From Candidatus Woesearchaeota archaeon (GTDB taxonomy: Archaea > Nanobdellota > Nanobdellia > SCGC-AAA011-G17 > UBA489), in the NCBI GenBank assembly GCA_964367375.1, contig CAYIXG010000001.1, forward strand, positions 148,254-212,253: 64,000 nt of DNA. The letters are read 5' to 3'. The translations under genes and the position numbers were made by a program. The notes beneath the pieces are model-generated. The model saw only the letters and a program-made list of their open reading frames with translations. It ran no database searches and was not told the DNA's origin. Below, piece by piece: positions 3,328 to 61,236 of the stretch. Each line of letters opens with the position of its first letter. Positions within the stretch are counted from its first letter, which is position 1.

Positions 3328-4560
3328 AGCGTGCTTTTTTTGATCGCTGTCGACGCGCGTTAACGCAATAACTCCCAAGATAATGAAGAAGGTGACAGCA
3401 ATGATGGCAATGCGGTATCGTGTGCTTCCAAGAGAAACAAGATTGGACACAATCAATCCCCATACAATAGGTCCAATGAATGAGGAGGCGCGTTCTGCCA
3501 GTCCAAAATAGGCAAAGGTGAGGTTATGTCTTCCAGGAGGTGCAATATATGCCATGACAGAGCGTGATACTGTCCATGTTGCGCCAAACCAGAATCCCAT
3601 GAGTGTTGTGGCAATAACAAAAAGAGTGAAATTGGTGATGAGTCCGACTAATGGGAGGAGGAAAACCCATCCGATAAGAATGCACAAAAGTGTTTTTTTG
3701 TGGCCAATTCGATCTGCAATTAATCCAGAGAGAAGTCCGCCAATGGCGCACGTGATTAAAACGCCGAGTAGGAGGTATGTTTTAACAGTGTCTGAGACGT
3801 GCCAGACTTGTTCAAGGAAGATGGGGAAATTATTGGAGGCAGTGAGAACAGCATCATTGAACAAGAAGTAAGCAAGAAGGAAGAAAGCAACGCTTGAGGA
3901 TGCGAGTAAATGTTTGGTGGCAGTAAATGTGTGTTTGACATGTGCCCAGAAGGAGAATGGCATTTTTTTCTTGTGAGGTTCGATGAAAAAGAGGAGCATG
4001 GGAAGCGAGAAAAGAAAGAAGACAATGACAGACGGCAAAAGAGTTTCAGCTCGCTGAGCGGATCCAAAAAGGCTAATGCTTCCATTAGAGAAGGGAAGCG
4101 CTATTAAGAGTCCTGCAAATTGGCCGAGGTAGTTTGCAGTGATGCCTAAGCCAGAGACGAATCCTCGTTTCTGAGGATGTGAGATGTCAGTAATGAGGGG
4201 AGTGTAGAAGGTAAAGGAAAGGAGATAGGAATACAGTCCAAGGGTGAAGAAGATGAGTGCAAGCATATCTTTGTTATATACAGCTGAGAGTGCGCATAGG
4301 CCGTAAAAGAGCACAGTGAAAAGTGTGCTGTATCTCAATCCAGTAATTCTTCTTAAGAAGGTGTCAAGCAGGCAGCCAGTCAGCGGAACAGTAAAGAGGA
4401 GGAGGATTGCAGAAATGGTGAAGGTTAAGTTAAAGGTGAGGTCAGATACGCCTCTGTCAACAACGATCCATTGGGAAAAATAGAGGAAGAAGACGACAGA
4501 AACGATGGAGTTTGCAAAATCATAGAGAATCCAGAGGAACGTGTTTCGTTTGGTGTTCAT
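3316..4560 (-). CDS. MFS-type transporter
   Basis: About 12 predicted TM helices and a GxLaDRxGrkk-like loop (GLIADRIGHKK). 414 aa. Confidence 0.55.
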   Translation of the reverse strand: MNTKRNTFLWILYDFANSIVSVVFFLYFSQWIVVDRGVSDLTFNLTFTISAILLLFTVPLTGCLLDTFLRRITGLRYSTLFTVLFYGLCALSAVYNKDMLALIFFTLGLYSYLLSFTFYTPLITDISHPQKRGFVSGLGITANYLGQFAGLLIALPFSNGSISLFGSAQRAETLLPSVIVFFLFSLPMLLFFIEPHKKKMPFSFWAHVKHTFTATKHLLASSSVAFFLLAYFLFNDAVLTASNNFPIFLEQVWHVSDTVKTYLLLGVLITCAIGGLLSGLIADRIGHKKTLLCILIGWVFLLPLVGLITNFTLFVIATTLMGFWFGATWTVSRSVMAYIAPPGRHNLTFAYFGLAERASSFIGPIVWGLIVSNLVSLGSTRYRIAIIAVTFFIILGVIALTRVDSDQKKHASSK

Positions 4561-4569
4561 ATGTAAAAA

Positions 4570-6054
4570 TTAGTAGCTTTTTGCAACGTACACAAGATGA
4601 TTGGCTTCTTTCTTGCAGATAATACAAATTTGTCCTTGTTTCACACGATCTTCCTCTGGGTAGAGTGTGCCGCACACGTTTCCTCCGTCAGTTTCCGCTT
4701 TCAAAACATCGCTGCATTTTTCTCCGTCGAAGTCAACAGAGCAGAAAGGAACAGTAACAAATCCTCTATGAGTGTGCAAGGTTTTTTTAAGAGTGTCCAG
4801 TGTGTCAACGGATCGCACATTGTGCGCGAAGTATGCCTCTGCGCGTGCGTGAATGTCTTTGTCAATAGTGGCTGCTGCATGGGCTATTTCTATGGTAAGG
4901 TCAGCAAGAACAAAGCTGGTGCGTTTCTCTTTTGTGCGGAGCGCTGCTGATACTGTTTTTGCTTTGGTTTCCTTTGGTCCAATTTCAAGGCGAACAGGAA
5001 CTCCTTTCATTTCCCACTTGTTGTATTTGTAGCCAGGGCTTTCACTGCTGTCATCTAATGTCACGCGGTATCCTTTGTTTGTGAGCGTTTTCACAACCTG
5101 TCTGCAAAAGCTGAGGACTTCTTTTCCTTCGTCTGCTTTGCCTGCAAAGAGAATAGGAATGACAACAATTTGTACAGGTGCCATATCAAAGGGAATGATC
5201 AATCCTTTATCATCTCCATGGATGCCGATGAGTGCTGCCATGATTCTCCACACTCCTGGTCCAAAGCAGGTTTGCCAGGCAAACTGGTCTTTCTCGTCTT
5301 TTCCCTTCACTTTGATGGTAAATGCTTTGGAGAAGTTTTGTCCGAGGTCATGGGTGGATGCAAGCTGGTTTCGTTTGCCGTCAGGCATGATCGTGTCTGG
5401 AGTGTAAGTGTTGTCAGCTCCTTTGAACTTGTCCCATTGGGGTCGTTGAAAGTAGAAAAAAGGAATATGAACCTTTTCTTCAATCACGTGTTTGCATGTT
5501 GCCAAGTCTTGTTCTATTTGCTCGAGTGCTTCCTCGTGCGTGTTGAACACATCATGGGTTTCAAAGAACATAAATTCTCTTCCTCTGAGGAAGGGGCGTG
5601 TGGTCATTTCGTTTCTGAATGCGGGAATCCTGCTTTGGTAGCCTTTGAAGGGCAAGTCTTTATGGCTTCTGAACCAGAGTGCATACAAGGGATAGATTTG
5701 TGCCTCTCCCGTTGGTCGTAAGGCAAAGCGCTCTTCTATTTTCTTGTCTCCTGCTTCACTTACCCAGAAGACATTGGGGGTGAATCCGGCATGCTCTTTT
5801 TCTTTGTGCAGGTTTTCTTCCTTTACAACACTAGGGAAGAGAAAGGGAAGATGTCCTTGCGCTTCAACTGCTGCTTCTAAGTATTCGTAAATCTTCTTGA
5901 TGAGGAAAAATCCCCACGGACGATGGACAATGAATCCTTGGATGCCGAAGCGGATGTCTGCAAGCTCTGCTTTATTCACTATTTGTGTGTACCATTCGGA
6001 GAAGTTCTCTTTTTTGGTGACAGTAATTCCTTCGTCTGGTTCTTTTGCTCTCAT
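4570..6054 (-). CDS. proS: prolyl-tRNA synthetase, archaeal/eukaryotic type
   Basis: Class II aaRS motifs, 494 aa. The C-terminus ends in Tyr (…VAKSY), as in archaeal-type ProRS. Confidence 0.85.
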   Translation of the reverse strand: MRAKEPDEGITVTKKENFSEWYTQIVNKAELADIRFGIQGFIVHRPWGFFLIKKIYEYLEAAVEAQGHLPFLFPSVVKEENLHKEKEHAGFTPNVFWVSEAGDKKIEERFALRPTGEAQIYPLYALWFRSHKDLPFKGYQSRIPAFRNEMTTRPFLRGREFMFFETHDVFNTHEEALEQIEQDLATCKHVIEEKVHIPFFYFQRPQWDKFKGADNTYTPDTIMPDGKRNQLASTHDLGQNFSKAFTIKVKGKDEKDQFAWQTCFGPGVWRIMAALIGIHGDDKGLIIPFDMAPVQIVVIPILFAGKADEGKEVLSFCRQVVKTLTNKGYRVTLDDSSESPGYKYNKWEMKGVPVRLEIGPKETKAKTVSAALRTKEKRTSFVLADLTIEIAHAAATIDKDIHARAEAYFAHNVRSVDTLDTLKKTLHTHRGFVTVPFCSVDFDGEKCSDVLKAETDGGNVCGTLYPEEDRVKQGQICIICKKEANHLVYVAKSY

Positions 6055-8054: not shown

Positions 8055-9182
8055 ATGAAAACCAGCACAAAGATCAGTATAGGAGTGATTTTACTAGCTG
8101 CTATTATAGGGGTAACATGGATTGTAGTCATGCAAGAGCCACAATCGAAAGCTCCTATGAAGATTGGAGTCATTGCTCCCTTAACAGGGCCAGTAGGCGT
8201 TATTGGTCAATACATGCAAGAAGGCCTGCTGTTAGCACAAAGAGAGATTAACGAGAGGGGAGGTATCCAAGGGAGGTCTCTTGAGCTCGTTTTTGAAGAC
8301 ACGATTGTTGACCCAAAACTCTCAGTAAGTGCGATGCAGAAATTTATCGATATTGATAACATAAAAGTGGTTATTGGTGACTATCGTTCTTCAAATACGC
8401 TCGCTGTAGCGCCAATAGCAGAAGAGAAAAAGGTTATTTTGATAAGTCCTGGGTCTCAAGCAGATTCCTTATCAGAGGCAGGAGACTATATTTTTAGAAC
8501 GCAAGTAACTGCTGAGGTGGAGGCTGAAAAGCTCGCTGATGTTATCAAGAATCAATTAGAAGAGACGCAAGTCTCCACAATAGTAACCAATCAAGATTAT
8601 GGAATTAGTTTTGAGGAAAAGTTTACAATATTTTTCAAGGAAAAGGGTGGAAGAGTATTACTCAACAATCGTGCAGAGACACAAGAAACGGATTACAGAA
8701 CAATGCTTCTGAAAAGCAAGGAGAAGGGCATTGATATGATTGTGTTAGCTGTTGGAGGGCTGGCTGGGGGATTGATTGCAAACCAAGCAAAGGAATTAGG
8801 ATTATCATTCACATTTGTCGCCTCTTCAATTATTCAGACAGGTGAGTTGCTTGAGGTGGGTAAAGGCAATGTTGAAGGATTTTTGTACGTCTACCCTTAT
8901 GCGCATATGACAAAGGAACAAGAGGTATTTACGCAGAACTACAAGAAAGCATACGGGAGAGAAAATGAAGTGATCGCTGCAAATAGTTATGATGCGCTAA
9001 TGCTCGCTGCTGAAGCGATAGAAATGTGTGAAGAAGATACTTCTTGTATCAAAGATGAGCTGTATGAAGTGAAAAACTATTCCGGTGCGAGCGGAGTCTT
9101 AAGCTTCGACGAAAATGGAGATGTGATAAAACCATTAATAATAAAAACAGTGAAGGATGGAAAATTTGTAAGTGTTATGTAA
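8055..9182 (+). CDS. LivJ/LivK-like (type 1 periplasmic binding fold) ligand-binding protein, membrane anchored
   Basis: IGVIAPLTGPVGVIGQ…GGIQGRSLELVFEDT is the classic Leu/Ile/Val-binding protein N-terminus. One N-terminal TM helix. No permease or ATPase genes nearby. Confidence 0.7.
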   Translation: MKTSTKISIGVILLAAIIGVTWIVVMQEPQSKAPMKIGVIAPLTGPVGVIGQYMQEGLLLAQREINERGGIQGRSLELVFEDTIVDPKLSVSAMQKFIDIDNIKVVIGDYRSSNTLAVAPIAEEKKVILISPGSQADSLSEAGDYIFRTQVTAEVEAEKLADVIKNQLEETQVSTIVTNQDYGISFEEKFTIFFKEKGGRVLLNNRAETQETDYRTMLLKSKEKGIDMIVLAVGGLAGGLIANQAKELGLSFTFVASSIIQTGELLEVGKGNVEGFLYVYPYAHMTKEQEVFTQNYKKAYGRENEVIAANSYDALMLAAEAIEMCEEDTSCIKDELYEVKNYSGASGVLSFDENGDVIKPLIIKTVKDGKFVSVM

Positions 9183-48245: not shown

Positions 48246-50171
48246 ATGGAAGCTCCTATACATCCATCGGAAGAAGAAAGATCTGGATTGTTAGCAAGAC
48301 TCAGAAACACAGGGAAGAAACTGTGGGAAAACGTTGAGCTGTATGTGGAGCAAAGAAGGCGGAAGCAAAAAGAGATGCGATTTCAAAGAGGAAGGGTAGA
48401 TTACGCATTATCATCCCTTGCAAATAGGATGCGAGTTGCAGTGTGGAACCATCCCACATTATTTACCTTAGCCACTGCAGTAACTACTGCGTTTACAAGA
48501 AAAGAGACAAATGATGAACAGATAGGCGTTGCTTTAGCATACGCTGTAGGTGCAGATTGTTTAAAATATATTATTAACAGAAATGTGCAAAAGGAGTCAA
48601 GAACTGCTGCAGAAAAAACTAATTTAGCAAAAATTATGGAGGTTGAATACTTAAACGAAATAATTCACCTTGTAAGAGAATATTACGGCCACAGAGGAGA
48701 AGTAGTGAGCATTGAGGAAGATACAGGGAAGCAGGATGGCACAGGTATTTTCAAGAGTGGCTATTCATCAAAAGTGCGGTTTAGATTTGCCGATGGAAAT
48801 ACTGCAGAAGTGTTCTATAAATATTCAGAAAAGCACGATCCAGGAAATGTAACAGCGGAGCGTGAAGGACGTTTCACAAATCTTTTACACGCTGCAGGGT
48901 TTGAATTTGTTCCACACGTGTTTATTCCATTTATGTCTAATTCAAGATTCATTAGATGGCTGAGAGGGGGCTGGAGCGATGAAGTGGAAGAAAAAGCTTC
49001 GCAACCAAATAGGGGTGTAGTATACGAATACATTGATGGAGAGACATTAGAAATGCGAGTTCGGGGAGAACACTCAAATGTTGATCAAAGAAAAATAATT
49101 CCTACAGCTACCGTATGCGAAACGTTTAGGCAGTTAGGGCAATTATACATGTTTGCAGGACAAGATAATGTGATTGGAGAGAAAGGGTTGTTTGGAGCAA
49201 GAGATGATGTTCCTCTTGAAGAGTACAGGTTCCACCATTCGCTTGTTTCTAAATTAGAAGGGGTTGGAGAAAAAGATTTTGCAAGAAGATTGAGGTTGGC
49301 GCATTTGCATACATTTAATGGTATTCCACTCACGATAGTACACGGTGATTTGCATCAAGGCAACATCATTGAAACCAGAAAAGGAAGTGTAAAGATTATT
49401 GACTGGGATAATGCAGCATTTGGCGTTCCATATGAAGATTTCTTCCATTTCGCAGTCATTTCCGATTTTGAAAGGAGCACGGATTTTGAAAAAGAAAGAA
49501 CTGCATTTGTGAAAGCGCAAGAAAAACAAGGAATTCACCTTTCTGAAGAACACTTAAAATTAATAGAGTTTGAGACATATCTGAGTTTATTCGCTCGATA
49601 TCAGCATGCGATAGTGAATGAAGAGATAAATGAAGAGTTTTGGGAGAACATGCATACTTCATGTAGGTATCTCTTAGAAGGTGCAAGAAAGTCAGTAACG
49701 CAATATGCGGATCTCACGGGAAATAGAGAATTAGCAGATAATTTTGAAAAGTTTGCTGAGAAAACTTTAGTAGAATCTATCACATCTTATAACCCATTAG
49801 CAAGCATTGCGTATGCGCACCGAGTGAATGCAAATGAAAGAAAGCTTGACAAAAGAGAAGCTGCGGTGGTAAACTTCACACGACACGCAGCCAGATTGGA
49901 AACAAGTTTACGCGCTGATCAAACATTGCGTGCAGTAGGAAGATTCGTGAAAGCAGGATTTGATATTGGATTACATTATGGCGCATATCACTTAATCAAA
50001 ACATGGGCTGAGTTGAATGCTGCAGGAAATTTGGATGGAGATGATATGAGTTTCACGACAAGGACTGTAGCAACACTAGGAGCTTTAGGAGTGTATGATT
50101 ATTTCTTCACTCCAATTCCTCGATGGATAAAGGCAGGTGTGCAGCGAGTATTCGGGAGAGAGGAGCATTAA
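48246..50171 (+). CDS. protein-kinase-like fold (APH/ChoK/CotS-type) kinase with N- and C-terminal hydrophobic extensions
   Basis: Brenner motif IVHGDLHQGNII and DWDNAAFGVPYEDF (DxD). 641 aa. Confidence 0.5.
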   Translation: MEAPIHPSEEERSGLLARLRNTGKKLWENVELYVEQRRRKQKEMRFQRGRVDYALSSLANRMRVAVWNHPTLFTLATAVTTAFTRKETNDEQIGVALAYAVGADCLKYIINRNVQKESRTAAEKTNLAKIMEVEYLNEIIHLVREYYGHRGEVVSIEEDTGKQDGTGIFKSGYSSKVRFRFADGNTAEVFYKYSEKHDPGNVTAEREGRFTNLLHAAGFEFVPHVFIPFMSNSRFIRWLRGGWSDEVEEKASQPNRGVVYEYIDGETLEMRVRGEHSNVDQRKIIPTATVCETFRQLGQLYMFAGQDNVIGEKGLFGARDDVPLEEYRFHHSLVSKLEGVGEKDFARRLRLAHLHTFNGIPLTIVHGDLHQGNIIETRKGSVKIIDWDNAAFGVPYEDFFHFAVISDFERSTDFEKERTAFVKAQEKQGIHLSEEHLKLIEFETYLSLFARYQHAIVNEEINEEFWENMHTSCRYLLEGARKSVTQYADLTGNRELADNFEKFAEKTLVESITSYNPLASIAYAHRVNANERKLDKREAAVVNFTRHAARLETSLRADQTLRAVGRFVKAGFDIGLHYGAYHLIKTWAELNAAGNLDGDDMSFTTRTVATLGALGVYDYFFTPIPRWIKAGVQRVFGREEH

Positions 50172-52067
50172 ATGACAAGAAGAAGACACACGTGGGCAGA
50201 TGAGCTGGGTGAAGAAAAAAAGAATCTGGTTCTTGATACTCTTTTATCAAAAATAGGAAGTGCTTCAAGAAAGTTTCATGAAGGACGATTTACCTTCACT
50301 ACAATAGGAGCAACATTGGGTGGATTAGATACGTTACTTTCTGGAGAGCTTGATTGGAAAGGTTTGGCATGGTTATTGGGTGGTGGATTAGCTTTCGATG
50401 CGTTAAAGGCAGGTGTTTATTACGTGAGAAACCAAGGGCAGATCAAAAAAATTAGAAACGAAAAAACAACAATTGGAAGGGTGATGGGCTCTGATTATTT
50501 AGAAGCGCTCATCACGAACATTCGAGAGTATGGATGTGCGCGAGGGGAGTGTGTGGCAATTGAAGAGCAGGTAAGCAACACAGAAGGTACAAACTTGCAC
50601 AGGGAGGGTTATACAATCTCGCTTATGTTCACGTTCGCAGATGGAACGCAAGTGCCAGCTTTTTTCAAGTACAACTACAGGCAGGGCAATGATGAGCATC
50701 CAGAGAATAATGGAAGAATAACGAGATTTTTGAGTGACAGAGGTCATTCGTTTGTGCCAAAAGTATTGAGTCCTGATATAGATGTATTAATGCAAGAACA
50801 GTTGTTTACTCTTGATAGGGAAAGAGGAACTGCTTCTCCAATAGAAGGTACAACAAACCGAGGATTGGTGTATGAATGGGTCAACGGTGCAAACTTGGAA
50901 TGGTTATTATACACGGAAAAAAATGTTGTGGTGAAAGGGAGCTTCAGGCAGAATACATTAAGTGTGAATGATATTCCTGTGGATGCACTTTTTGAGAATA
51001 TGTGGGAGGTGTATGAAGATGACTTGCGAGGATTTTTTTTACCTGCGAAAACAAGAACGTTTCACAATAGTTTAGTTGCAAAAATACAGCAAGCTTCACC
51101 AGAATTTGCATCTATAGTAGATAAGGTGCATAAAGAAACGATTACAGATGATGCATTGCTGTTGAAAGCGAGAATAATTCATGGTGATTTGCATCAAGGC
51201 AACATCATGGTAAATACAGGAGAAGTCATGACACACGGAATGTTTGGAACGCAGTTCACCGCAGCAGGGATTAAAGTATTTGATTGGGACAATGCGGAGA
51301 TTGGCATTCCTTATCAGGATTTCTTCCATTTTGCAGTTATTTCAGATTTTGAGAGAAGTGATGCATTTCCTGAAGCAAGAGCTAAATTCTTAAAAAAGCA
51401 GAAGAAAGTACTTCCTGGAGTGACTGAGGCGCAGACGAGATTGATCGAATTTGAAACCTATGTAAGTTTGCTCATGCGATATCATGCAGCAGTCGCAGAA
51501 AAAACGCTGAAGCCAGAGTTTGAGCAGAACATATTGACCTCATGCAGGTATTTGCTTGAGAAATCAAGAGCTGCAGTAGATGCGTTTGCTGCGACAACTG
51601 GAAATGATGGCATACGCACTGCATACGATCAATTTGTCAGGGAAAATCTGAGTGAAGTGGAAGCAACGCCATTTGATCAAAGTGCGAGCGTTGGCTATGC
51701 GCACACAGTTAATCATAAAGAGCGACGGATTAAAAATGGAGATTCATTAGCAGATGTGGTGCGGAAGAATCAGCAGGTCCATCAAAGAAGAATAGAGAGA
51801 AGAGTCAAGCAGACAAACCTTTATGGAAATATGCTATGGTTTGCAGCTGCATTAAACACGGCAGTCTACGCATATATAATGGGAGCGACATATGTTGGCA
51901 TGCAGGCAGGAAAGGTAAGTCAGGAGCACTTTTCTGAGGCTGCAGTGGATGGTGGGAAAGGTCTTCTTGCTATTTATGGATTGGCGTTACTTGGAAACAA
52001 CATTGATAGAATAGTAAGATGTGGGAAGCGAATGTATCACTGGTTTGCAGGGCAACGCAAATCATAG
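50172..52067 (+). CDS. protein-kinase-like fold (APH/ChoK-type) kinase, tandem paralog
   Basis: IIHGDLHQGNIM and FDWDNAEIGIPYQDFFHFAVISDFERS. Start directly abuts the upstream paralog's stop. Confidence 0.5.
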   Translation: MTRRRHTWADELGEEKKNLVLDTLLSKIGSASRKFHEGRFTFTTIGATLGGLDTLLSGELDWKGLAWLLGGGLAFDALKAGVYYVRNQGQIKKIRNEKTTIGRVMGSDYLEALITNIREYGCARGECVAIEEQVSNTEGTNLHREGYTISLMFTFADGTQVPAFFKYNYRQGNDEHPENNGRITRFLSDRGHSFVPKVLSPDIDVLMQEQLFTLDRERGTASPIEGTTNRGLVYEWVNGANLEWLLYTEKNVVVKGSFRQNTLSVNDIPVDALFENMWEVYEDDLRGFFLPAKTRTFHNSLVAKIQQASPEFASIVDKVHKETITDDALLLKARIIHGDLHQGNIMVNTGEVMTHGMFGTQFTAAGIKVFDWDNAEIGIPYQDFFHFAVISDFERSDAFPEARAKFLKKQKKVLPGVTEAQTRLIEFETYVSLLMRYHAAVAEKTLKPEFEQNILTSCRYLLEKSRAAVDAFAATTGNDGIRTAYDQFVRENLSEVEATPFDQSASVGYAHTVNHKERRIKNGDSLADVVRKNQQVHQRRIERRVKQTNLYGNMLWFAAALNTAVYAYIMGATYVGMQAGKVSQEHFSEAAVDGGKGLLAIYGLALLGNNIDRIVRCGKRMYHWFAGQRKS

Positions 52068-53077: not shown

Positions 53078-53141
53078 TAAATGTGGTTTATACATATTGG
53101 ATAATAGTAATCTATTAAAACTGGTTCTTGTTCCTCTCGGA

Positions 53142-54872
53142 ATGCACCAACCAGCGCAAAAAACGAAGTATATAGTTGTTCTCGGTGGAGTGTTATCAGG
53201 CGTTGGGAAAGGTGTTGCAACGGCTTCTATTGGAAAGATTTTGAAGGAATACGGCTTGTCAGTCACTGCAATGAAGATTGATCCGTATCTGAATTTGAAT
53301 GCTGGCACCTTAAGACCTACAGAGCATGGGGAAGTCTGGGTGACTGATGATGGCGGTGAGATTGATCAGGATCTTGGCAATTATGAACGATTTCTCGGGG
53401 TTGACATTCCGAAGAAGAATTGTATCACCTCTGGGCAGATTTACAAGACAATTATTGATAAGGAGATTGCTGGCGGGTATCTAGGAAAGACAGTGCAGTT
53501 TATTCCGCACGTGCCGGATGAGGTGAAGCGCAGGATAAATGATGCTGCCGATGGATTTGAGGTGTGCTTGATTGAAGTTGGCGGAACAGTGGGCGATTAC
53601 GAGAACATTCCCTTTTTGTTTGCGGTAAAAAGTTTGGAGCGAGAGTTAGGAAAGGAAAACATGATGTATGTGCTTGTGTCTTATTTGCCTGTGCCATCTC
53701 ATGTGGGTGAGATGAAAACCAAGCCAACACAAATGGCAGTGAAGTTGTTGTCTGAGCAGGGTATTTTCCCTGATTTTATTTTGTGCCGTGCGGCAAAGCC
53801 GTTAGATGAGATACGGAGGAAGAAGATCGAGCAGTATGCAAACATTCCTGCAGAGCATGTCATTTCTGCTCCGGATGTGGATACTATTTATTCCATTCCA
53901 TTAAATTTTGAGAAGGAAAATCTGGGTGAGAAGATTATGAATCAGTTGAAGGTAACGCCAAAAAAGAAGCTGTCGTGGGATAAGTGGAAGGTGCTTGTGG
54001 ATATTTTGAGGAGCGCGCAGAAGAAGGTGCATATTGCGATGATCGGGAAATATGTGGAGAGTGGTGATTTTGTACTTTCTGATTCATACATTTCTGTGAA
54101 TGAATCATTGAAGCACGCTGCTGCAGCAATTGGGATGGGCATCACAATTTCCTGGGTGGATGCAAAGGCATTGGAGCAAGAAGAGGATATCAACCAAATG
54201 CTTGAAAAGTTTGATGGGATTGTTGTTCCTGGAGGATTTGGAGCGACAGGCGTTGAGGGGAAAATAAATGCAATTCAGTATGCACGGGAGCACAAAGTGC
54301 CCTATTTGGGGTTGTGTTATGGGATGCAGCTTGCGGTTGTTGAATTTGCGAGAAATGTGTGTAATTTGAAAGATGCGCACACAACAGAAATTAGTAAAGG
54401 CTGTGCATCTCCGGTGATTGACCTTCTTCCGGAGCAGCAGCAGGTGAAGGAGATGAGTGGCACGATGCGTCTGGGTGCGTTTGCTGCTGTGTTGAAGGAA
54501 GGCACGCAAATTGCGCGTCTGTATCAAGAGACGAAACGTGTGGAGAAAGATCAGGTGCGGTTAGAAACGCTTCGCGAGAATGGTGAAACATTGAGATTAG
54601 GGAAACTTCCAGAAAAAGGGATAGTGATCTTAGAAAGGCACAGGCATCGGTTTGAGCAAAATCCGAAGTTTGTCAAGGCATTGGAAGATAAGGGTATGGT
54701 TTTTTCTGGCTATCACGAGCGTCAGGATGGCACAAGATTGATGGAGTTTATTGAGCTTCCCGGACAAACCTTTTTGGGAACGCAAGCGCATCCGGAGTTC
54801 AAGTCGCGGTTGGAAGATCCATCGCCGTTATTTCTGGGATTTGTGGAGGCTGCTGCCAAGCAGAAAGCTTAA
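53142..54872 (+). CDS. pyrG: CTP synthase
   Basis: KYIVVLGGVLSGVGKG N-terminus. GATase catalytic GLCYGMQ. Start placed at MHQPAQK (the ORF opens at 53097). Confidence 0.9.
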   Translation: MHQPAQKTKYIVVLGGVLSGVGKGVATASIGKILKEYGLSVTAMKIDPYLNLNAGTLRPTEHGEVWVTDDGGEIDQDLGNYERFLGVDIPKKNCITSGQIYKTIIDKEIAGGYLGKTVQFIPHVPDEVKRRINDAADGFEVCLIEVGGTVGDYENIPFLFAVKSLERELGKENMMYVLVSYLPVPSHVGEMKTKPTQMAVKLLSEQGIFPDFILCRAAKPLDEIRRKKIEQYANIPAEHVISAPDVDTIYSIPLNFEKENLGEKIMNQLKVTPKKKLSWDKWKVLVDILRSAQKKVHIAMIGKYVESGDFVLSDSYISVNESLKHAAAAIGMGITISWVDAKALEQEEDINQMLEKFDGIVVPGGFGATGVEGKINAIQYAREHKVPYLGLCYGMQLAVVEFARNVCNLKDAHTTEISKGCASPVIDLLPEQQQVKEMSGTMRLGAFAAVLKEGTQIARLYQETKRVEKDQVRLETLRENGETLRLGKLPEKGIVILERHRHRFEQNPKFVKALEDKGMVFSGYHERQDGTRLMEFIELPGQTFLGTQAHPEFKSRLEDPSPLFLGFVEAAAKQKA

Positions 54873-54898: not shown

Positions 54899-55258
54899 AT
54901 GTCACCATCAGAGCAGATTATTTATGAAGTAACAAATGGAGCAGTTCCTCCTTTGTACGAGCCGCGAAATCTGGAGCGTGTTGTTTTAAGCCAAAATGGA
55001 TGGCCTAATCAGGATGGGTTTTCGAGTGATAGAAGAGGAGCATTGATATGGGCGCATCGTGAAGGAGGAGTCACGATGCTTGGGTTTCATTTGTGTGGTG
55101 TGTCCTTGCAATATGTGCATCGTCCGCATAATGGAAGTGCATCTGTGTTGTTCAAAGCGATTGGTGAGCCTGAGTACATAGATCCTGTTGTGAACAGGTT
55201 TAGAGTGTTGGAAGAGACGTTTGTGGATCTTCCAGTAATGAAAAAGGCACGAGCATAA
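54899..55258 (+). CDS. hypothetical protein
   Basis: 119-aa ORF between pyrG and dut. Confidence 0.3.
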   Translation: MSPSEQIIYEVTNGAVPPLYEPRNLERVVLSQNGWPNQDGFSSDRRGALIWAHREGGVTMLGFHLCGVSLQYVHRPHNGSASVLFKAIGEPEYIDPVVNRFRVLEETFVDLPVMKKARA

Positions 55259-55696
55259 TCATCCGGTGCTGCCAAATCCGCCGCGTGTTTTTTTTGTGAT
55301 TTCATCCACTTCTTCAAAGTCAACTTTGGTTATCTTGACGAAAACTGCTTGCGCGATGCGTTCTCCTTTTTCGATGATGACGGGCTGGTCTGCGAAGTTG
55401 TATACTTGCAGTTGTAAAACATCGTCTGGGCCGCAGTAATCCTGGTCGATGATGCCAATGCCATGAGGAATGAGCAGGTTTTTCTTTCGGGGTGTGGAGG
55501 ATCTGGGAACAAGCACAAGCATATGATCTGGTGGTGTTTCAATGATGGTGTTTAAGGGAACAAGGGCAACTGTTTTAGGAGGAATAATTACTTCTTTCCC
55601 GCTCGTGAGGTCAAATGCTGCCGCTCCTTTTGTGTGGTATTGGGGTAAAGGAATGGTTTTGTCGATGCGTTTAATGGCGGCTTTCATGGATATCAA
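55259..55696 (-). CDS. dut: dUTP diphosphatase (trimeric dUTPase)
   Basis: All five dUTPase motifs: AAAFDL, RSSTPRK, GIIDQDYCG, GERIAQ, RGGFGSTG. Confidence 0.85.
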   Translation of the reverse strand: MISMKAAIKRIDKTIPLPQYHTKGAAAFDLTSGKEVIIPPKTVALVPLNTIIETPPDHMLVLVPRSSTPRKKNLLIPHGIGIIDQDYCGPDDVLQLQVYNFADQPVIIEKGERIAQAVFVKITKVDFEEVDEITKKTRGGFGSTG

Positions 55697-55853
55697 TTGA
55701 AGTGTGAAGAATAATAAATTTTGAATTGAAGTTTATAAAGATTATGGGAATGAAAGAGTGGCAATAAATATATGCACTTTGTTGGTCGTGTTGGAAATGA
55801 TATAATTACAAAGAAGATGTGTTTAAATAGGTAAGAAAGGTGATAGAAAAAAG

Positions 55854-57605
55854 ATGCCGTTAAAAAATTTTTCTGAGGAAGAAGCAGAGAAGATTCGCGC
55901 GTTTTTGTTTACCAATCCTCATGGAGACACGAGTTTTGTGTATCCACAGCAATTAGTTGCAGGGGAAGAGCTTTCTCCATTAATGGCTGCGTATTCGCGC
56001 ACGCATATTCCTTTTCAAGACAGAGTATTGCAATTTCTTGATGTTGAGAAGCCTGAGCAAACGCGGGGTTTTCTTCCCTTCATTGATCCGCTGGTGCAGC
56101 TGTTTCGGAATGCTGATGGGTCGCTTGTTGTCTCTCGGAAGACGCGGGGGTTTAATGAGGAGTGGGTGTTGAAGCATGGGCATAGTTCAATTAAGGAGGA
56201 GACTGCCTTGTTTGGATATTGTGAAGATGTTTCTGACATCACAGGGAAGCAAATCACCGGCCATCCATTAATAAAGCCGCAGGTGAAGTCAACGCGCTAT
56301 CTTTCCTATGGGAAAGTGTTGGAGCGTTCGCTTGATGATCCAGACATACGTTCTTTACCGAATGCAGATCGTATTCTTGAGCACATTGTTTTTCTGAATA
56401 AAAGATATCTTGAAGTTGCAGAGCAGCTTGCAACATTGGTGTGGGAGCATGCAGATACGAGAGAAGCAGTTGCGTTTCTCAGAAGTCCAGCAGTGGTAGA
56501 AAGGGAAGTGAGGCGGCGTTTTGAAAAAGCAGGAAAAAGTAACCCTTCAGAAGAAGAATGGAAAAAAGAATATAGATCTGTAGAGAAAGGGGTAGCTGAT
56601 GAGGGAATAAGGAAGGATGTTGCAAAAGGCGTTCTTGATGATGCGCGGGTGTATCTTCCTGCAGTGACACGAACGTCTATCGGATTCTCTGTTGATGCGA
56701 GAACCTTAGAAGATGTTATCATAAATCTTATTTCAAGTGAAAGACAGGAAGATCAAGAAAGAGGAAATGTGCTCTGGAGAGAGGCGAGAAAGATAGCTCC
56801 AGTGCTTCTTGGAGAGAGAAGTCATGTGAAAAGGGATGAGTGGAGAAGGGCAACAGAGAAGGAGCTGAGGGTGTATGTGGAGCGTAATCTTGGCCATTGT
56901 GATAGTGAAGAGAAAAGAAGAGTGCGTTTAATCACGCCGCGAGGGATTGATATAGATTCTGATATATGGAGCGCGACGGTGGTTGCGTTCCAGTATGCTG
57001 ATGCGTCTGTGTTGGATATATATACGCTAATGACAGAGGAGCATGCTGCTGACATTCTTGAGTTGGCACATAAGCACAGATCAGATCATGATGTGCTGCA
57101 TCCTGCGATTGCGCATAGTGGGTTTATGGTTGAGTTTTTGATGGGATATCATGCGTATCGTGATGTGTTTCGTCACAGAAGAGGTTCGAGAACGAATCAG
57201 CGGTTGACAACAATGCATGGGTTTGAGGTTCCGGAAATATTCAAGGTTTTTGGGATAGATGAAAGATACAAAGAGGATATGGAGAAAGCGGCGCAGGTCT
57301 ATGAAATGGTCAGGAGACAGGCAGGGATGCAGGTTGCGGAGAAGCTCGTTCCGTTTGGAGCATTGTGTCGGTCGTTGCATTCCTGGCAGGTCAATCAGAT
57401 GGGATATGTAGGAAGGTTGAGAAGTGACATTGCAAAGGGGAATCGGTCGTATGTGGAAGTAACACGAGAGCTCATGGCTGAAGTGGGAAAAGTGCTTCCG
57501 GAGACTGCAAAATATTTGAGGTATGATACGCGAGAATATCCTTCACACCTCTGGAAGGGTGCATATGAATGGTATGATGCGACGCAACGAGGGAAGGGAA
57601 AATGA
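55854..57605 (+). CDS. ThyX-like (flavin-dependent thymidylate synthase family) protein, long tandem/degenerate form
   Basis: The C-terminal half carries FRHRRGSRTNQ (RHRxxS). The N-terminal half carries KSTRY (SxRY-like). 583 aa against about 220-250 for canonical ThyX. Confidence 0.5.
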   Translation: MPLKNFSEEEAEKIRAFLFTNPHGDTSFVYPQQLVAGEELSPLMAAYSRTHIPFQDRVLQFLDVEKPEQTRGFLPFIDPLVQLFRNADGSLVVSRKTRGFNEEWVLKHGHSSIKEETALFGYCEDVSDITGKQITGHPLIKPQVKSTRYLSYGKVLERSLDDPDIRSLPNADRILEHIVFLNKRYLEVAEQLATLVWEHADTREAVAFLRSPAVVEREVRRRFEKAGKSNPSEEEWKKEYRSVEKGVADEGIRKDVAKGVLDDARVYLPAVTRTSIGFSVDARTLEDVIINLISSERQEDQERGNVLWREARKIAPVLLGERSHVKRDEWRRATEKELRVYVERNLGHCDSEEKRRVRLITPRGIDIDSDIWSATVVAFQYADASVLDIYTLMTEEHAADILELAHKHRSDHDVLHPAIAHSGFMVEFLMGYHAYRDVFRHRRGSRTNQRLTTMHGFEVPEIFKVFGIDERYKEDMEKAAQVYEMVRRQAGMQVAEKLVPFGALCRSLHSWQVNQMGYVGRLRSDIAKGNRSYVEVTRELMAEVGKVLPETAKYLRYDTREYPSHLWKGAYEWYDATQRGKGK

Positions 57606-58252
57606 AGATAGAAATCTTGCGAAGAATTCCTTTTTCTGAATTGGAAGATATGATAAGGCGTGTGCCGTTGAAGGGAAAGACTCCTGAGGGAAAAGATATC
57701 TTGGTATATCAGCATGCGCGGATTGCGCTGAAACAGCTTGAGGCTGGTGAGGTGAATCCGACAACGTTTTATCTGGTAAGAAAGAATATGGATGTGCAAA
57801 GAGAGATACGTGCATGCTTGCGTGCAGAGCATGGCATTGACAGTCTTCAGCTTGATGGCGCGTTGGAGATTCAGAATGATCAAGGAGAGGTGTGGACATT
57901 AACGCCTCCGATTGTTGAATTCACTTCAAGGATTGTGCACTATGTTGCGCAGCAGGGGGAGAAAGAGTGTGAAAGAAATGTAAAGATTGCAATTCCTATC
58001 GTTAATGATGGTGCGCATCGGGTTGCGCTCGCAAGGGATTTAGGAGTTCCTTTTAATGCAGTGGTTATTTCTGGCGCATTGGAGGCATTTCTCTTTTATG
58101 CGCATCCGAATGCGTGGGATGAAGTGCGTTTAGTTGATGCAGTTCCTGCACAAAGAGAGGAGAAGAAGTTATACATAAGAGACGACTGTTATTTCTTGTA
58201 TCGTGATTTTGGTGTATTGGGATGCGGAGCTCCGCGGAGTCCTCACAAATAA
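57602..58252 (+). CDS. ParB/sulfiredoxin-like (ParB N-terminal NTP-binding/nuclease fold) protein
   Basis: IPIVNDGAHRVALARDLGVPFNAVVI matches the DGhHR…ArelG core of the ParB/Srx fold. Stop overlaps the next gene. Confidence 0.45.
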   Translation: MKIEILRRIPFSELEDMIRRVPLKGKTPEGKDILVYQHARIALKQLEAGEVNPTTFYLVRKNMDVQREIRACLRAEHGIDSLQLDGALEIQNDQGEVWTLTPPIVEFTSRIVHYVAQQGEKECERNVKIAIPIVNDGAHRVALARDLGVPFNAVVISGALEAFLFYAHPNAWDEVRLVDAVPAQREEKKLYIRDDCYFLYRDFGVLGCGAPRSPHK

Positions 58253-58253
58253 A

Positions 58254-58871
58254 ATGGCAAAGCTCATTCATATTGTGGGAACATCAGGGTCTGGAAAGCA
58301 AACATTGCAGCAAGACCTTCGGCAAAGAGTTGAGCGTGCAGGTTTTGCTGTTGAGGAGATTGTTGAGCCTGGTCCGTTAGCGAGGTTCATTAAGGAATAT
58401 CGTCTCTCTCCAGAGAAAGACCCGTGGGTTGAAGTTGCATTGTTTACTGCAGATCGAACGATGACTTATGCACAAAAGATTCTTCCAAGAATACATGATC
58501 CAAATAGGGTGTTTGTGAGCGCTCGGGGATTGCCAGACACGATTGTCTATCAAGGGTTGATTGGAGGTGTGGATATTCCAATCATTATGAGGATGAATAG
58601 GCATATTCCTGAGTCTGATCTGTATCTTGTGCTTGTTGTGAGTGGAAATGTGGGTCATGAGAGGATACGGGCAAGATATTGTTCGAGTGGAAGAGATGAG
58701 CATAGGATAAGTCCGAACGAGCAGCCTGCTGCGATTGATAAATTAGCAGCAGAGTATCGAACGCTTCCTGATTTTTTTCATAATGTGCATGTGATTGATA
58801 CAACCTCTCTTTCTCCTGAGGAAGTGGGAGAAGCAGCGTGGAAAGAAGTTGAGAGTGTGTTGAAAAAATGA
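58254..58871 (+). CDS. divergent thymidylate-kinase-fold P-loop (d)NMP kinase
   Basis: P-loop IHIVGTSGSGKQT, ALFTADRTMTYAQ (Tmk FaaDR-like motif), lid region. Distinct from the canonical tmk at 63567. Confidence 0.5.
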   Translation: MAKLIHIVGTSGSGKQTLQQDLRQRVERAGFAVEEIVEPGPLARFIKEYRLSPEKDPWVEVALFTADRTMTYAQKILPRIHDPNRVFVSARGLPDTIVYQGLIGGVDIPIIMRMNRHIPESDLYLVLVVSGNVGHERIRARYCSSGRDEHRISPNEQPAAIDKLAAEYRTLPDFFHNVHVIDTTSLSPEEVGEAAWKEVESVLKK

Positions 58872-59521
58872 GTGAAAAAGAAGTGGATGTTGTTGGTTTT
58901 GATCTGGATAATACATTGTATACGCTTACAGAGGAAATGCAGTCCTGGATAAGGCAGAGGGTGTGTGTAGTTACAAGTGAAAGGTTGAGGAGAGATAGTG
59001 GTGAAGTGCAAAGGGAATTTGAAGAAAGGTATAAAGAGTTGCAGAGTGCGCGACGATCCCTCATGGCCTTAGGATTGCCAGAGGATGAATCTATAGACAT
59101 TGTGCAGCGTTGTTTAGAAGAGGAAGAAATAGTAGGATTCATCAAGAGGGATGAGCAGCTTGCTGCATTAATAGGTAAATTGCGAAAAGAATATGGGCTT
59201 TTTTTGATTACAGGAAGTAATGAAAAGCTCACAGGAGAAAAATTAAGAAGGTTGGGTGTGGAGAAAGAAGTTTTTTCAGTAATGGTGTGTGCAAACACTC
59301 AATACAGAAGGGAAGATGGCTCTGCATTTCACTATGTGTCTGCAGCGCTGCAAGTTCCTCATCAGCGGATGCTTTTTGTGGGTGATAGAGAAGCAGTTGA
59401 CATTCTTCCCGCAGCGCGATTAGGAATCAAAACAGCAATAGTAAATGGGCGTTCTGCGCATGCAACGTATAATTTGAGCACTCTTTATGATCTTGAAGGG
59501 ATTCTTTTAGCAAGAAGGTGA
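58868..59521 (+). CDS. HAD-superfamily phosphatase (nucleotidase-like)
   Basis: Motif I VVGFDLDNTLY (DxDxT). Confidence 0.6.
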   Translation: MSEKEVDVVGFDLDNTLYTLTEEMQSWIRQRVCVVTSERLRRDSGEVQREFEERYKELQSARRSLMALGLPEDESIDIVQRCLEEEEIVGFIKRDEQLAALIGKLRKEYGLFLITGSNEKLTGEKLRRLGVEKEVFSVMVCANTQYRREDGSAFHYVSAALQVPHQRMLFVGDREAVDILPAARLGIKTAIVNGRSAHATYNLSTLYDLEGILLARR

Positions 59522-59525
59522 ATGG

Positions 59526-60086
59526 TTAATCTTGGCTGATTTTGCTTGCCCCTGGCCCGACAGATTTCAGATATTTTGAATCTGGTCGTTTATCATAGGG
59601 TGTGCTGGTGGGAGTGCTGAGTTTGTCAAATGTGATTCTGCAGATGCGTGATCCTGGCCAGAGCTTGATGGGAACTTTTGCAATGTTCACAATTTCCAGG
59701 GTAATATTGCCTTCGAATCCGGGGTCAATGGATCCGGCTGTGGAGTGAATCACCAATCCTAATCGTGCGAGTGAGCTTCTTCCATCGAGCCGTCCGACAA
59801 GGTCATAGGGGAGCTTGACGTATTCCTTTGTGCTTCCGAGGACAAGTTCTCCAGGATGGATGACAATAGAGTTACCTTCGTCAATAAGGAAGCTGTGCAT
59901 GTGGTGGTCTTTCACGCCTTCTTTGGTGTCGATGTGGGTTAAGTCATTGTATTTGTACATCTTAAATTGGGAGCTTAAATGGAGATCAACAGATGCCATG
60001 GAGATGCATTCGGGCAGGTGATCTTTAATTAACAGAGCTCCAGAAGAAAGGTATTTTTTGATGTCAATGTCGCTTAAGACTACCAT
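59526..60086 (-). CDS. dcd: dCTP deaminase
   Basis: 186 aa. LPYDLVGRLDGRSSLARLGL…AGSIDPGF matches the Dcd/dUTPase-like jelly-roll motifs. Confidence 0.8.
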   Translation of the reverse strand: MVVLSDIDIKKYLSSGALLIKDHLPECISMASVDLHLSSQFKMYKYNDLTHIDTKEGVKDHHMHSFLIDEGNSIVIHPGELVLGSTKEYVKLPYDLVGRLDGRSSLARLGLVIHSTAGSIDPGFEGNITLEIVNIAKVPIKLWPGSRICRITFDKLSTPTSTPYDKRPDSKYLKSVGPGASKISQD

Positions 60087-60222
60087 AGGTATTATGAATG
60101 AGGAGAGTTTAAATGGTTTTTATCACTTGAATATAGATGTTGAAAATGAATGAAAGAAAAAAGAGAACTATTCCTAATAATAATAAGGCAATGTTTATAA
60201 AAAGGAGTTTTCTATCTGAAAT

Positions 60223-61236
60223 ATGCAGCGTTTAAAAGCAGCAGTGATTGGTTTAGGGCGTCAAGCAATAGAAGATCATATCCCTGGCTTGAAGGATTCT
60301 CAATTTGGTCAATTAGAGGCAGTCTGCGATCTTGATGAAAGAAAGGTTGCAGAATGGAGTGAGAAGACAGGCGTGCGGGGATTTAAGGATTATAATGAAC
60401 TATTTGATAGTGTAGAACTTGATTTTATTGTAGCTGTAACGCCTCATAATGTGTATCCTGGAATTATTGAAGAGGCAGCGAAGAGACGTTTGCATGTGTT
60501 GAAAGAGAAACCATTTGCACGAAATTTGCAGGAAGCTTCTCATTTTAGAAGTATATGTGAGAAGAATGGTATTCAAGTAATGACGACATTGCAAAGGAGG
60601 TTTAATCCGGTGTATAGCACATTTTTTCAGCTTATAGATCAAATTGGAAATCCCTTTTTTGTGGATATTAAATACACTCTTTTTGTAGAAAATCCTCATG
60701 AAGGATGGAGAGCAAGCAAAGAAAAAGCAGGTGGGGGGTGTATTATTGATATGGGATATCATATGGTTGATATGATTATATGGTATTTTGGTCTTCCTGA
60801 TAAAGTCCATGCAGAATGCTCGTCGCTGGCAAAATCAGATGAAAAATATGACGCAGAAGATACTGCAAGCATTCTCTTTTCGTATGATACAGGATTGCAT
60901 GGTTCGCTATTAGTATCGCGATCTCTGCCTCCGAAAACAGAACAAATGAGGGTTGTGGGAAGTAGAGGTATTATTGAGGTTGAAAGAGGTCATATTCGAA
61001 AGTTGAGAAGTAATGGAGAAGTAGCTGAATCATTAACAAGAGAGCACGCGTGGCCTGTTGCTGCAGCAAACCAAATTGATTATTTTTGTAGAGTAATCAA
61101 AGGAGAAAGAGAAAATATAGGTGGTCCTCAGTATCACATGCAGCACGTGAGTTTTGTAGATGCATGTTATCAATCAAAGGCAGAAGGAAGATATGTCAAT
61201 CCAAAGGAGTTGTTAGCACGATGCCAAACGTCTTAG
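60223..61236 (+). CDS. Gfo/Idh/MocA-family NAD(P)-dependent oxidoreductase (inositol/sugar dehydrogenase-like)
   Basis: N-terminal Rossmann fold KAAVIGLGRQAIEDH. C-terminal alpha/beta dimerisation domain. Confidence 0.7.
   Translation: MQRLKAAVIGLGRQAIEDHIPGLKDSQFGQLEAVCDLDERKVAEWSEKTGVRGFKDYNELFDSVELDFIVAVTPHNVYPGIIEEAAKRRLHVLKEKPFARNLQEASHFRSICEKNGIQVMTTLQRRFNPVYSTFFQLIDQIGNPFFVDIKYTLFVENPHEGWRASKEKAGGGCIIDMGYHMVDMIIWYFGLPDKVHAECSSLAKSDEKYDAEDTASILFSYDTGLHGSLLVSRSLPPKTEQMRVVGSRGIIEVERGHIRKLRSNGEVAESLTREHAWPVAAANQIDYFCRVIKGERENIGGPQYHMQHVSFVDACYQSKAEGRYVNPKELLARCQTS

Follow-up and report, generated by a model that had tools for sequence, protein, structure and literature searches.

A single gene in the 64,000-nucleotide stretch of contig CAYIXG010000001.1 from a Candidatus Woesearchaeota archaeon (the window) encodes a 583-residue relative of ThyX, the flavin adenine dinucleotide (FAD)-dependent thymidylate synthase. 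Our analysis leads us to conclude that the gene probably encodes a tandem-duplicated, "long" ThyX that converts deoxyuridine monophosphate (dUMP) to thymidine monophosphate (dTMP), in which two fused ThyX domains have lost complementary parts of the active site and which is predicted to form a pseudo-tetramer. The ThyX signature is complete only when the N-terminal half (N-half) and the C-terminal half (C-half) are combined. The class of long ThyX proteins to which the window protein belongs, as a divergent member, is very large, already annotated as ThyX, and structurally and biochemically uncharacterized.

Two ThyX domains and a divided signature

The gene is a single + strand open reading frame (ORF) in the ORF listing (55854..57605), with an ATG start and 583 codons plus a stop. 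The start codon matches the starts of the homologues (MKNFS...), and the stop overlaps the start of the next gene as ATGA. In ThyX from Thermotoga maritima, the signature motifs are contiguous (RHRIASYNELSGRY at residues 78–91); the sequence that we used is 100% identical to PDB 1kq4/1o26, and the S88A, R174K, and Y91F mutant entries confirm its numbering. No such contiguous RHRxxSxxxxSxR(Y) pattern is found within one domain of the window protein, which has GHPLIKPQVKSTRY in the N-half and RHRRGSRTNQRLTT in the C-half. KSTRY occupies residues 145–149 and RHRRGS residues 440–445, and a check of the nucleotides places QVKSTRY at 56280–56300 and YRDVFRHRRGS at 57156–57188. An earlier note, made from the DNA letters alone, had given the length of 583 residues and this placement of the two motifs, and had stated that canonical ThyX carries them contiguously; the ORF, the nucleotide check, and the T. 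maritima sequence bear out each of these points. In an alignment of 30 homologues with 31–58% identity to the window protein, Q143, S146, R148, Y149, Y435, R436, D437, R440, R442, and G444 are invariant. The motifs are not chance occurrences because their residues are invariant among these homologues.

Both halves match ThyX in their own right. The Pfam profile Thy1 (PF02511) scores 58.7 bits on the full protein in two stretches, against a cut-off of 24.8, and when the halves are scanned separately residues 94–316 score 43.7 bits and the C-half 19 bits. Hidden Markov models (HMMs) of the N-halves and of the C-halves, each built from 211 long ThyX proteins, match T. maritima ThyX at 44.5 and 33.6 bits, respectively. 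The AlphaFold2 model, computed with the family alignment as input, has a mean predicted local distance difference test score (pLDDT) of 92.1 and a predicted template modeling score (pTM) of 0.89. All 50 of the PDB matches listed by Foldseek for this model are ThyX, from Mycobacterium tuberculosis or T. maritima; each spans approximately one domain, with a template modeling (TM) score per target of 0.52–0.62 and an identity of 15–19%. Structure prediction, which the earlier note had proposed as a check, returns only ThyX among the 50 matches listed. An unrelated N-terminal domain joined to one intact ThyX domain, which the note had named as an outcome that would refute its reading, can be eliminated because the Thy1, HMM, and fold matches show that both halves are ThyX: the N-half is the better Thy1 match of the two, neither half is intact, and the fold matches ThyX.

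The two-domain architecture is widespread. When 1.84 billion cluster representatives (50% identity) were searched with the profile, 2,511 matched at E ≤ 1e-3 and 288 at E ≤ 1e-30; almost every one of the top 150 is 470–620 residues long and has two or more Thy1 stretches. A second search returned at least 2,352 clusters at E ≤ 1e-10 from both bacteria and archaea, and long ThyX of both groups are detected by the family profile at E values of ~1e-40 to 1e-75. The source-given names among the 120 proteins listed are all ThyX or FAD-dependent thymidylate synthase. The window protein shares with this class the two ThyX domains in one chain of ~470–620 residues, the same division of the motifs, and profile similarity over its full length. 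The earlier note had called it "unusually long," and the rarity that this wording implies does not hold, since the design is standard in a class that numbers at least 2,352 clusters and is already annotated as ThyX.

The division of the signature is equally general. As assessed by regular expression, 179 of 201 full-length long proteins carry SxRY in the N-half and RHR in the C-half, and a contiguous RHR...SxRY occurs in none of the 201. The same split is present in 80 of 80 named-genome loci (the top 80 listed), with the motifs ~245–280 residues apart among the loci listed. These loci include Sorangium cellulosum, Westiellopsis, Calothrix, Prochloron, Chloroflexus, and Chloroploca, and also members of NC10, Armatimonadota, Acidimicrobiia, Binatia, Patescibacteria, Woesearchaeota, Iainarchaeota, and Micrarchaeota; the class as a whole covers Chloroflexi, cyanobacteria, Myxococcota, Acidimicrobiia, NC10, Armatimonadota, and Patescibacteria in addition to DPANN archaea. 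A long ThyX with a fully canonical, contiguous motif, which the note had set against its own reading, did not appear among the long ThyX examined.

Two apparent cases of a contiguous motif, L049 and L068, proved to carry an unrelated NRRHRPGRAFERTSYRF element instead. Some bacterial long ThyX have this extra conserved C-half element, NRRHRPGRAFE(R/Q)T(S/A)Y(R/Q)F, ~25 residues before the true RDxxRHR. We observed it in P0070–P0072 (Acidimicrobiales), L049 (~residue 369), and L068 (~residue 383), and it mimics the contiguous ThyX motif in regular-expression searches.

Apart from Dehalococcoides, the only ThyX of Chloroflexi is one whose domain is duplicated (Valas and Bourne 2009, PMC3224940). 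As the only ThyX form in those Chloroflexi, the duplicated protein must supply their dTMP, and by implication it functions as a thymidylate synthase in free-living bacteria. Our searches of the literature on tandem, fused, or pseudo-tetramer ThyX found no description of the complementary split and only this 2009 remark on duplication, and tandem ThyX is absent among the solved structures matched in our PDB sequence and fold searches.

Within the class, the window ThyX belongs to a divergent DPANN-archaeal subfamily. Its closest relatives are 42–58% identical, 560–615 residues long, and named Pacearchaeota, Woesearchaeota, or Nanoarchaeota; a further group is 31% identical. Archaeal genes lie near the related ThyX loci, for example, Spt5-NGN, archease, and FtsZ. 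A public Logan contig matches positions 54951–61096 of the window at 100% identity and has identical gene calls. The window ThyX itself is present in the public protein collection (P0433) and gave no self-match in the homologue search because its 90% cluster is represented by a 40-residue fragment (P0434).

A probable composite active site and its predicted assembly

ThyX from M. tuberculosis and Helicobacter pylori is a homotetramer with four sites, each of which is built from three chains (PMC6514825). In M. tuberculosis numbering, chain A provides the RHR triplet (residues 95–97) and Arg199, which bind the phosphates, ribityl, and flavin of FAD and also dUMP; chain B provides Ser71 and Arg190, which bind FAD; and chain C provides Gln103 (through its backbone), Ser105, Arg107, Arg87, and Tyr108, the last as a lid over dUMP (PMC6514825). 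In the T. maritima enzyme, R174 serves in dUMP activation, and S88, R90, and Y91 assist methylene transfer (PMC8316439). The RHR and SxRY of one canonical chain thus serve different sites, which makes complementary loss possible after a duplication.

We mapped each T. maritima residue onto its counterparts in the N-half and C-half of the window protein and took conservation from the 211 long ThyX proteins. For the chain-A role, R78 corresponds to R440 in the C-half (Arg in 100%), H79 to H441 (93%), R80 to R442 (100%), and R174 to R523 (99%); the respective N-half residues are G136 (Asp or Gly in the class), H137 (34%), P138 (Arg in 45%, Pro in 42%), and N291 (variable). For the chain-B role, T55 corresponds to S112 in the N-half (Ser in 99%) and is unaligned in the C-half, and R165 corresponds to R283 (89%) in the N-half and N514 (Arg in 49%) in the C-half. 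S112 is likewise the equivalent of M. tuberculosis Ser71, the chain-B FAD contact (PMC6514825). The chain-C residues S88, R90, and Y91 correspond to S146 (100%), R148 (100%), and Y149 (99%) in the N-half and to Q449 (Gln in 81%), L451, and T452 in the C-half, where the QRLT that replaces SxRY is itself conserved in the class alignment. H53 corresponds to H110 (84%) and is unaligned in the C-half, and R147, which we take to contact the dUMP phosphate, corresponds to R265 (100%) and E496. The full set of FAD, dUMP, and catalytic residues (R78, H79, R80, R174, T55, R165, S88, R90, Y91, and R147) is present across the two halves, each residue exactly once, with 89–100% conservation.

On this map, the C-domain keeps only the chain-A role and the N-domain the chain-B and chain-C roles. 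The earlier note had suggested a fused pseudo-dimer with complementary degenerate sites and had proposed looking for FAD- and dUMP-binding residues in each half; the two ThyX domains and the residue map support that suggestion at the residue level, and the complementary sets found in the halves fit the three-chain make-up of the canonical site. An ancestral ThyX would have been duplicated and fused, and the copies would then have lost complementary parts of the active site.

The same residue logic leads to a predicted assembly. In a D2 tetramer, the chain combinations at the four sites are (A;B,C), (B;A,D), (C;D,A), and (D;C,B). For any site to be complete, C-domains must occupy positions A and D and N-domains positions B and C, which gives two intact and two fully dead sites. 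A homodimer of the 583-residue chain is thus predicted to be a pseudo-tetramer in which every site needs both polypeptides, each intact site being composed of one C-domain together with both N-domains. Their two reciprocal counterparts would be dead and would be expected to bind neither FAD nor dUMP, so that two FAD and two dUMP sites, and hence two FAD per dimer, are predicted.

The composite site lacks no catalytic residue, from which we infer ordinary chemistry, with CH2-folate as the presumed carbon donor and NAD(P)H as the presumed reductant; conversion of dUMP to dTMP is the most likely reaction. Several points speak against this picture of a working tandem ThyX. The folate supply in DPANN archaea is uncertain, and the duplicated ThyX has been described as uncharacterized (Valas and Bourne 2009, PMC3224940). 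The HMM alignments that underlie the residue map have ~16–19% identity, although their anchor motifs are unambiguous, and some second-shell positions differ from T. maritima (E86 is V144 and Q75 is D437). The thyX equivalog model TIGR02170, which was built on single-domain ThyX, gives 27.2 bits and does not reach its cut-off of 87.9. Neither the protein nor the family profile had a significant match in PDB sequence searches (best, PBCV-1 ThyX 2cfa, E = 0.21). Comparison of the N-half with the C-half by hhalign gave E = 0.1 and an out-of-register alignment, so that the halves are not detectably similar; as internal duplication cannot be demonstrated by self-similarity, it is shown instead by the match of each half to canonical ThyX.

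Altered chemistry is the alternative that survives best, and we consider it unlikely. Here, the ThyX fold would act on another substrate or by another reaction (hydroxymethylation, methylation of deoxycytidine or uridine monophosphate, or use of a non-folate one-carbon donor), and the ParB-CE and HAD proteins encoded downstream would process the modified nucleotide. The great divergence of the DPANN subfamily (22–25% identity to other long ThyX and a score below the TIGR02170 cut-off), the N-domain helical insertion that is ~60 residues larger than in T. maritima, the replacement of E86 by V144, and the nearly constant position of ThyX ahead of an uncharacterized ParB/Srx-fold gene and a HAD phosphatase all favor it. 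However, the residues for dUMP binding and activation and for methylene transfer (the equivalents of S88, R90, Y91, R147, R174, and R78) are all invariant, and V144 is not special to the window protein because 30% of the whole class has Val at the E86 position. The neighboring dUTPase, dCTP deaminase, and dTMP kinase are enzymes immediately before and after dTMP synthesis, PADLOC gives no match, and the sole PHROG match is to a family named thymidylate synthase. Hydroxymethylation had been offered in the earlier note as an example of altered chemistry, and it finds no support in a composite site that is complete and a context of dUMP supply and dTMP kinase.

Slightly less probable again is a chain that works alone as a monomer, pairing its own two domains into an intramolecular pseudo-dimer that has one composite site and does not build a pseudo-tetramer. 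The AlphaFold2 monomer is compact and confident (pTM 0.89), and fusion of the domains could in principle make a higher assembly unnecessary. The canonical enzyme, however, is an obligate homotetramer whose site takes three chains, and the residues of the chain-B and chain-C roles both lie only in the N-half; without a rebuilt geometry, the single N-domain of a monomer cannot fill both roles from two positions. It is very improbable that the protein is a ThyX-like pseudoenzyme, catalytically dead and serving in regulation or nucleotide binding: neither half has a complete ThyX motif and the equivalog model fails, but the halves complement each other exactly, the catalytic residues are 99–100% conserved across thousands of proteins, and the reported Chloroflexi genomes have the duplicated form as their only thymidylate synthase.

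A role in defense or phage modification was rejected, as PADLOC gave no matches and the only PHROG match is weak and to a thymidylate synthase family. That match, phrog_36506 ("thymidylate synthase," a 491-position profile), covers residues 402–547 of the ThyX C-half at E = 5.5e-4 and suggests that long tandem ThyX also occurs in phages.

The proposed thymidylate module and its surroundings

The features of the tandem ThyX gene, read here as a dUMP-to-dTMP synthase, and of the neighboring genes are collected in Table 1. The N-domain insertion (residues 150–261) compares with ~52 residues (92–143) in T. maritima.

Table 1. Coordinates in the window of the ThyX gene, its domains and active-site elements, and the neighboring genes
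Feature	Position	Strand	Basis
Tandem (duplicated) ThyX gene, 583 residues	55854..57605	+	ORF; Pfam Thy1 in two stretches; model pLDDT 92.1; ThyX fold matches
N-terminal ThyX domain, residues 1–316; chain-B and chain-C role residues kept, RHR and R174 lost	55854..56801	+	Thy1, HMM, residue map
HSSIKE (H110–E115), equivalent to T. maritima H53–E58	56181..56198	+	Ser 99%, His 84% in class; nucleotide coordinates checked
GHP (G136–P138), degenerate RHR remnant of N-half	56259..56267	+	In class, R78 position Asp or Gly, R80 position Arg or Pro; coordinates checked
QVKSTRY (Q143–Y149); S146, R148, Y149 equivalent to T. maritima S88, R90, Y91 (chain-C dUMP contacts, tyrosine lid)	56280..56300	+	99–100% conserved in 211 long ThyX
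Enlarged helical insertion of N-domain, residues 150–261	56301..56636	+	Model helices 152–267; HMM alignment gap between its two domains
R265, equivalent to T. maritima R147	56646..56648	+	Arg 100% in class N-halves; Gln or Glu in C-halves
R283, equivalent to T. maritima R165 and M. tuberculosis Arg190 (chain-B FAD contact)	56700..56702	+	Arg 89% in class N-halves
Interdomain linker, residues 317–356, with helix 329–346	56802..56921	+	Model secondary structure; between the two Thy1 stretches
C-terminal ThyX domain, residues 357–583; chain-A role residues kept, SxRY, R147, and H53/T55 region lost	56922..57602	+	Thy1, HMM, residue map
YRDVFRHRRGS (Y435–S445); R440, H441, R442 equivalent to T. 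maritima R78, H79, R80	57156..57188	+	Arg 100%, His 93%, Arg 100% in class; family-invariant
QRLT (Q449–T452), degenerate SxRY remnant of C-half	57198..57209	+	Gln 81%, Leu 71%, Thr 68% in class; coordinates checked
R523, equivalent to T. maritima R174 and M. tuberculosis Arg199 (chain-A, dUMP activation)	57420..57422	+	Arg 99% in class C-halves, variable in N-halves
CTP synthase	53097-54872	+	
119-residue ORF	54899-55258	+	No family match
dUTPase, divergent from ThyX	55259-55696	-	Pfam dUTPase E = 4.6e-25
ParB-CE (PF24392) protein, 216 residues	57602-58252	+	Pfam E = 3.9e-14; start overlaps ThyX stop (ATGA)
dTMP kinase (Tmk)-like	58203-58871	+	Pfam Thymidylate_kin E = 4.4e-16; TIGR00041 69.6 bits, below 83.25 cut-off
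HAD-superfamily hydrolase, conserved fourth gene of module	58868-59521	+	
dCTP deaminase	59526-60086	-	Pfam DCD E = 8.1e-42

The enzymes encoded around ThyX act directly before and after dTMP formation, with dUTPase supplying dUMP. Judged from gene content, the operon context (dUTPase, dCTP deaminase, and Tmk) is consistent with dUMP-to-dTMP catalysis, and a dUTPase gene adjoins long ThyX in seven unrelated loci. By tblastn, no ThyA-like sequence and no second ThyX was found in the 64-kb window; the Escherichia coli ThyA query was an unverified sequence, and the result applies to these 64 kb and not to the genome as a whole. The earlier observation that the window has no thyA holds at this level. 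Between dUTPase and ThyX, positions 55697–55853 contain a TTTAAATA box and a Shine–Dalgarno-like GGTGAT just before the ThyX ATG, elements that are consistent with an archaeal promoter. The 119-residue ORF matches nothing in Pfam, PHROG, or PADLOC, and tblastn did not find it in those long-ThyX loci with which it was compared.

The gene that follows ThyX encodes a protein of the ParB-CE family. In six of the seven subfamily loci sampled (the window counted and the 31% branch included), ThyX is followed by ParB-CE and then by Tmk and HAD. ParB-CE lies at 4287–4937 and 6770–7423 in L001, 6794–7423 in L002, 5782–6435 in L083, 5824–6477 in L084, and 5756–6430 in L085; a homologue within ~4 kb was found in none of 80 other long-ThyX loci. 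In L001, whose ThyX is 58% identical to that of the window, the two ParB-CE paralogues flank ThyX. The family comprises ~80 clusters, nearly all of the named ones from DPANN archaea and every source-given name being "hypothetical protein," and has an invariant D136-G137-x-H139-R140 (DGxHR) motif. The AlphaFold2 model of ParB-CE has a pLDDT of 95.1, and its top 27 PDB fold matches all belong to the ParB/Srx superfamily; these matches are weak (E ~0.04, probability up to 0.97) and include Noc, CDP-bound ParB, ATP-bound sulfiredoxin, Atu1540, and PadC. ParB-CE gave no NCBIfam, PHROG, or PADLOC matches, and our literature search found nothing on the family.

The gene linkage argues for a role of ParB-CE in thymidylate metabolism. 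We tentatively suggest that the DPANN long ThyX, ParB-CE, Tmk, and HAD phosphatase form a dedicated module of four genes, so that ThyX would not work alone, in which ParB-CE would be a new nucleotide-dependent enzyme or an accessory subunit. It could be a ParB/Srx-type phosphotransferase that acts on a thymidine or deoxyuridine nucleotide, or a subunit that regulates or supports a two-site ThyX.

Other loci of the subfamily vary around this arrangement. In L002 (7420–8577) and L084 (6517–7671), Tmk is fused to a HAD/PNK3P-like phosphatase domain (~385 residues), and the two are separate genes in the window; the fusion is curious in that a kinase and a phosphatase would act on the same nucleotide pool. 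At 8882–11761 of L002, genes for NrdR and a class II ribonucleotide reductase adjoin the ThyX module, and an intein with a LAGLIDADG domain is present in the reductase.

Further afield in the window, two adjacent + strand paralogues at 48246–50171 (641 residues) and 50172–52067 (631 residues), each with an APH/choline-kinase-type phosphotransferase domain, sit just upstream of the nucleotide-metabolism cluster. All 2-kb bins of the window have a positive GC skew (0.08–0.34), and the cumulative skew climbs steadily over the 64 kb. Searches for tRNA genes and Rfam families found none in the window.

Significance and comparison with known ThyX

For annotation, the window gene can be named thymidylate synthase with no special flag. 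For the class, the residue map offers a testable rule, in which the C-domain would take the chain-A role and the N-domain the chain-B and chain-C roles, with two live and two dead sites per dimer. The long ThyX is a natural experiment on site sharing among ThyX chains; it bears on whether the canonical tetramer needs all four sites and, if pathogens carry the long form, on the design of ThyX inhibitors. In DPANN archaea, it also brings to light ParB-CE as a conserved partner with a strong link to thymidylate metabolism.

An experimental anchor for the class would be gained if ThyX from Chlamydia trachomatis belongs to it. This protein (CT632) of ~529 residues is reported to be an active flavin-dependent thymidylate synthase in biochemical work (Griffin et al. 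2005). Chlamydia is absent among the top 80 genome loci and the top 120 proteins listed, and our literature searches found no statement on the domain structure of chlamydial ThyX. In a 2002 phylogeny, chlamydial ThyX was left out for lack of identity (PMC6171736).

The window ThyX shares its fold and its FAD, dUMP, and catalytic residues with canonical ThyX (T. maritima TM0449, PDB 1o26/4gt9; M. tuberculosis Rv2754c, PDB 2af6/3gwc), and its reaction and metabolic place are predicted to be alike. Canonical ThyX is a homotetramer of 209–270-residue chains with four identical sites and a contiguous RHRxxSxxxxSxRY in every chain, whereas the window protein has two diverged domains in one 583-residue chain, the full motif in neither, and two intact and two dead sites by prediction, at a sequence identity of only 15–19%. 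With the duplicated long ThyX class, it shares the two-domain architecture, with SxRY, R147, and T55 in the N-half and RHR and R174 in the C-half. Its subfamily differs from other long ThyX in length (560–615 against ~500–550 residues, or ~70–90 residues longer), in identity (22–25% to the other long ThyX, alignment A2), and at the degenerate RHR position, where the subfamily has GHP and the other long ThyX have D/ExR. Alone among long ThyX, the subfamily is linked to a ParB-CE gene.

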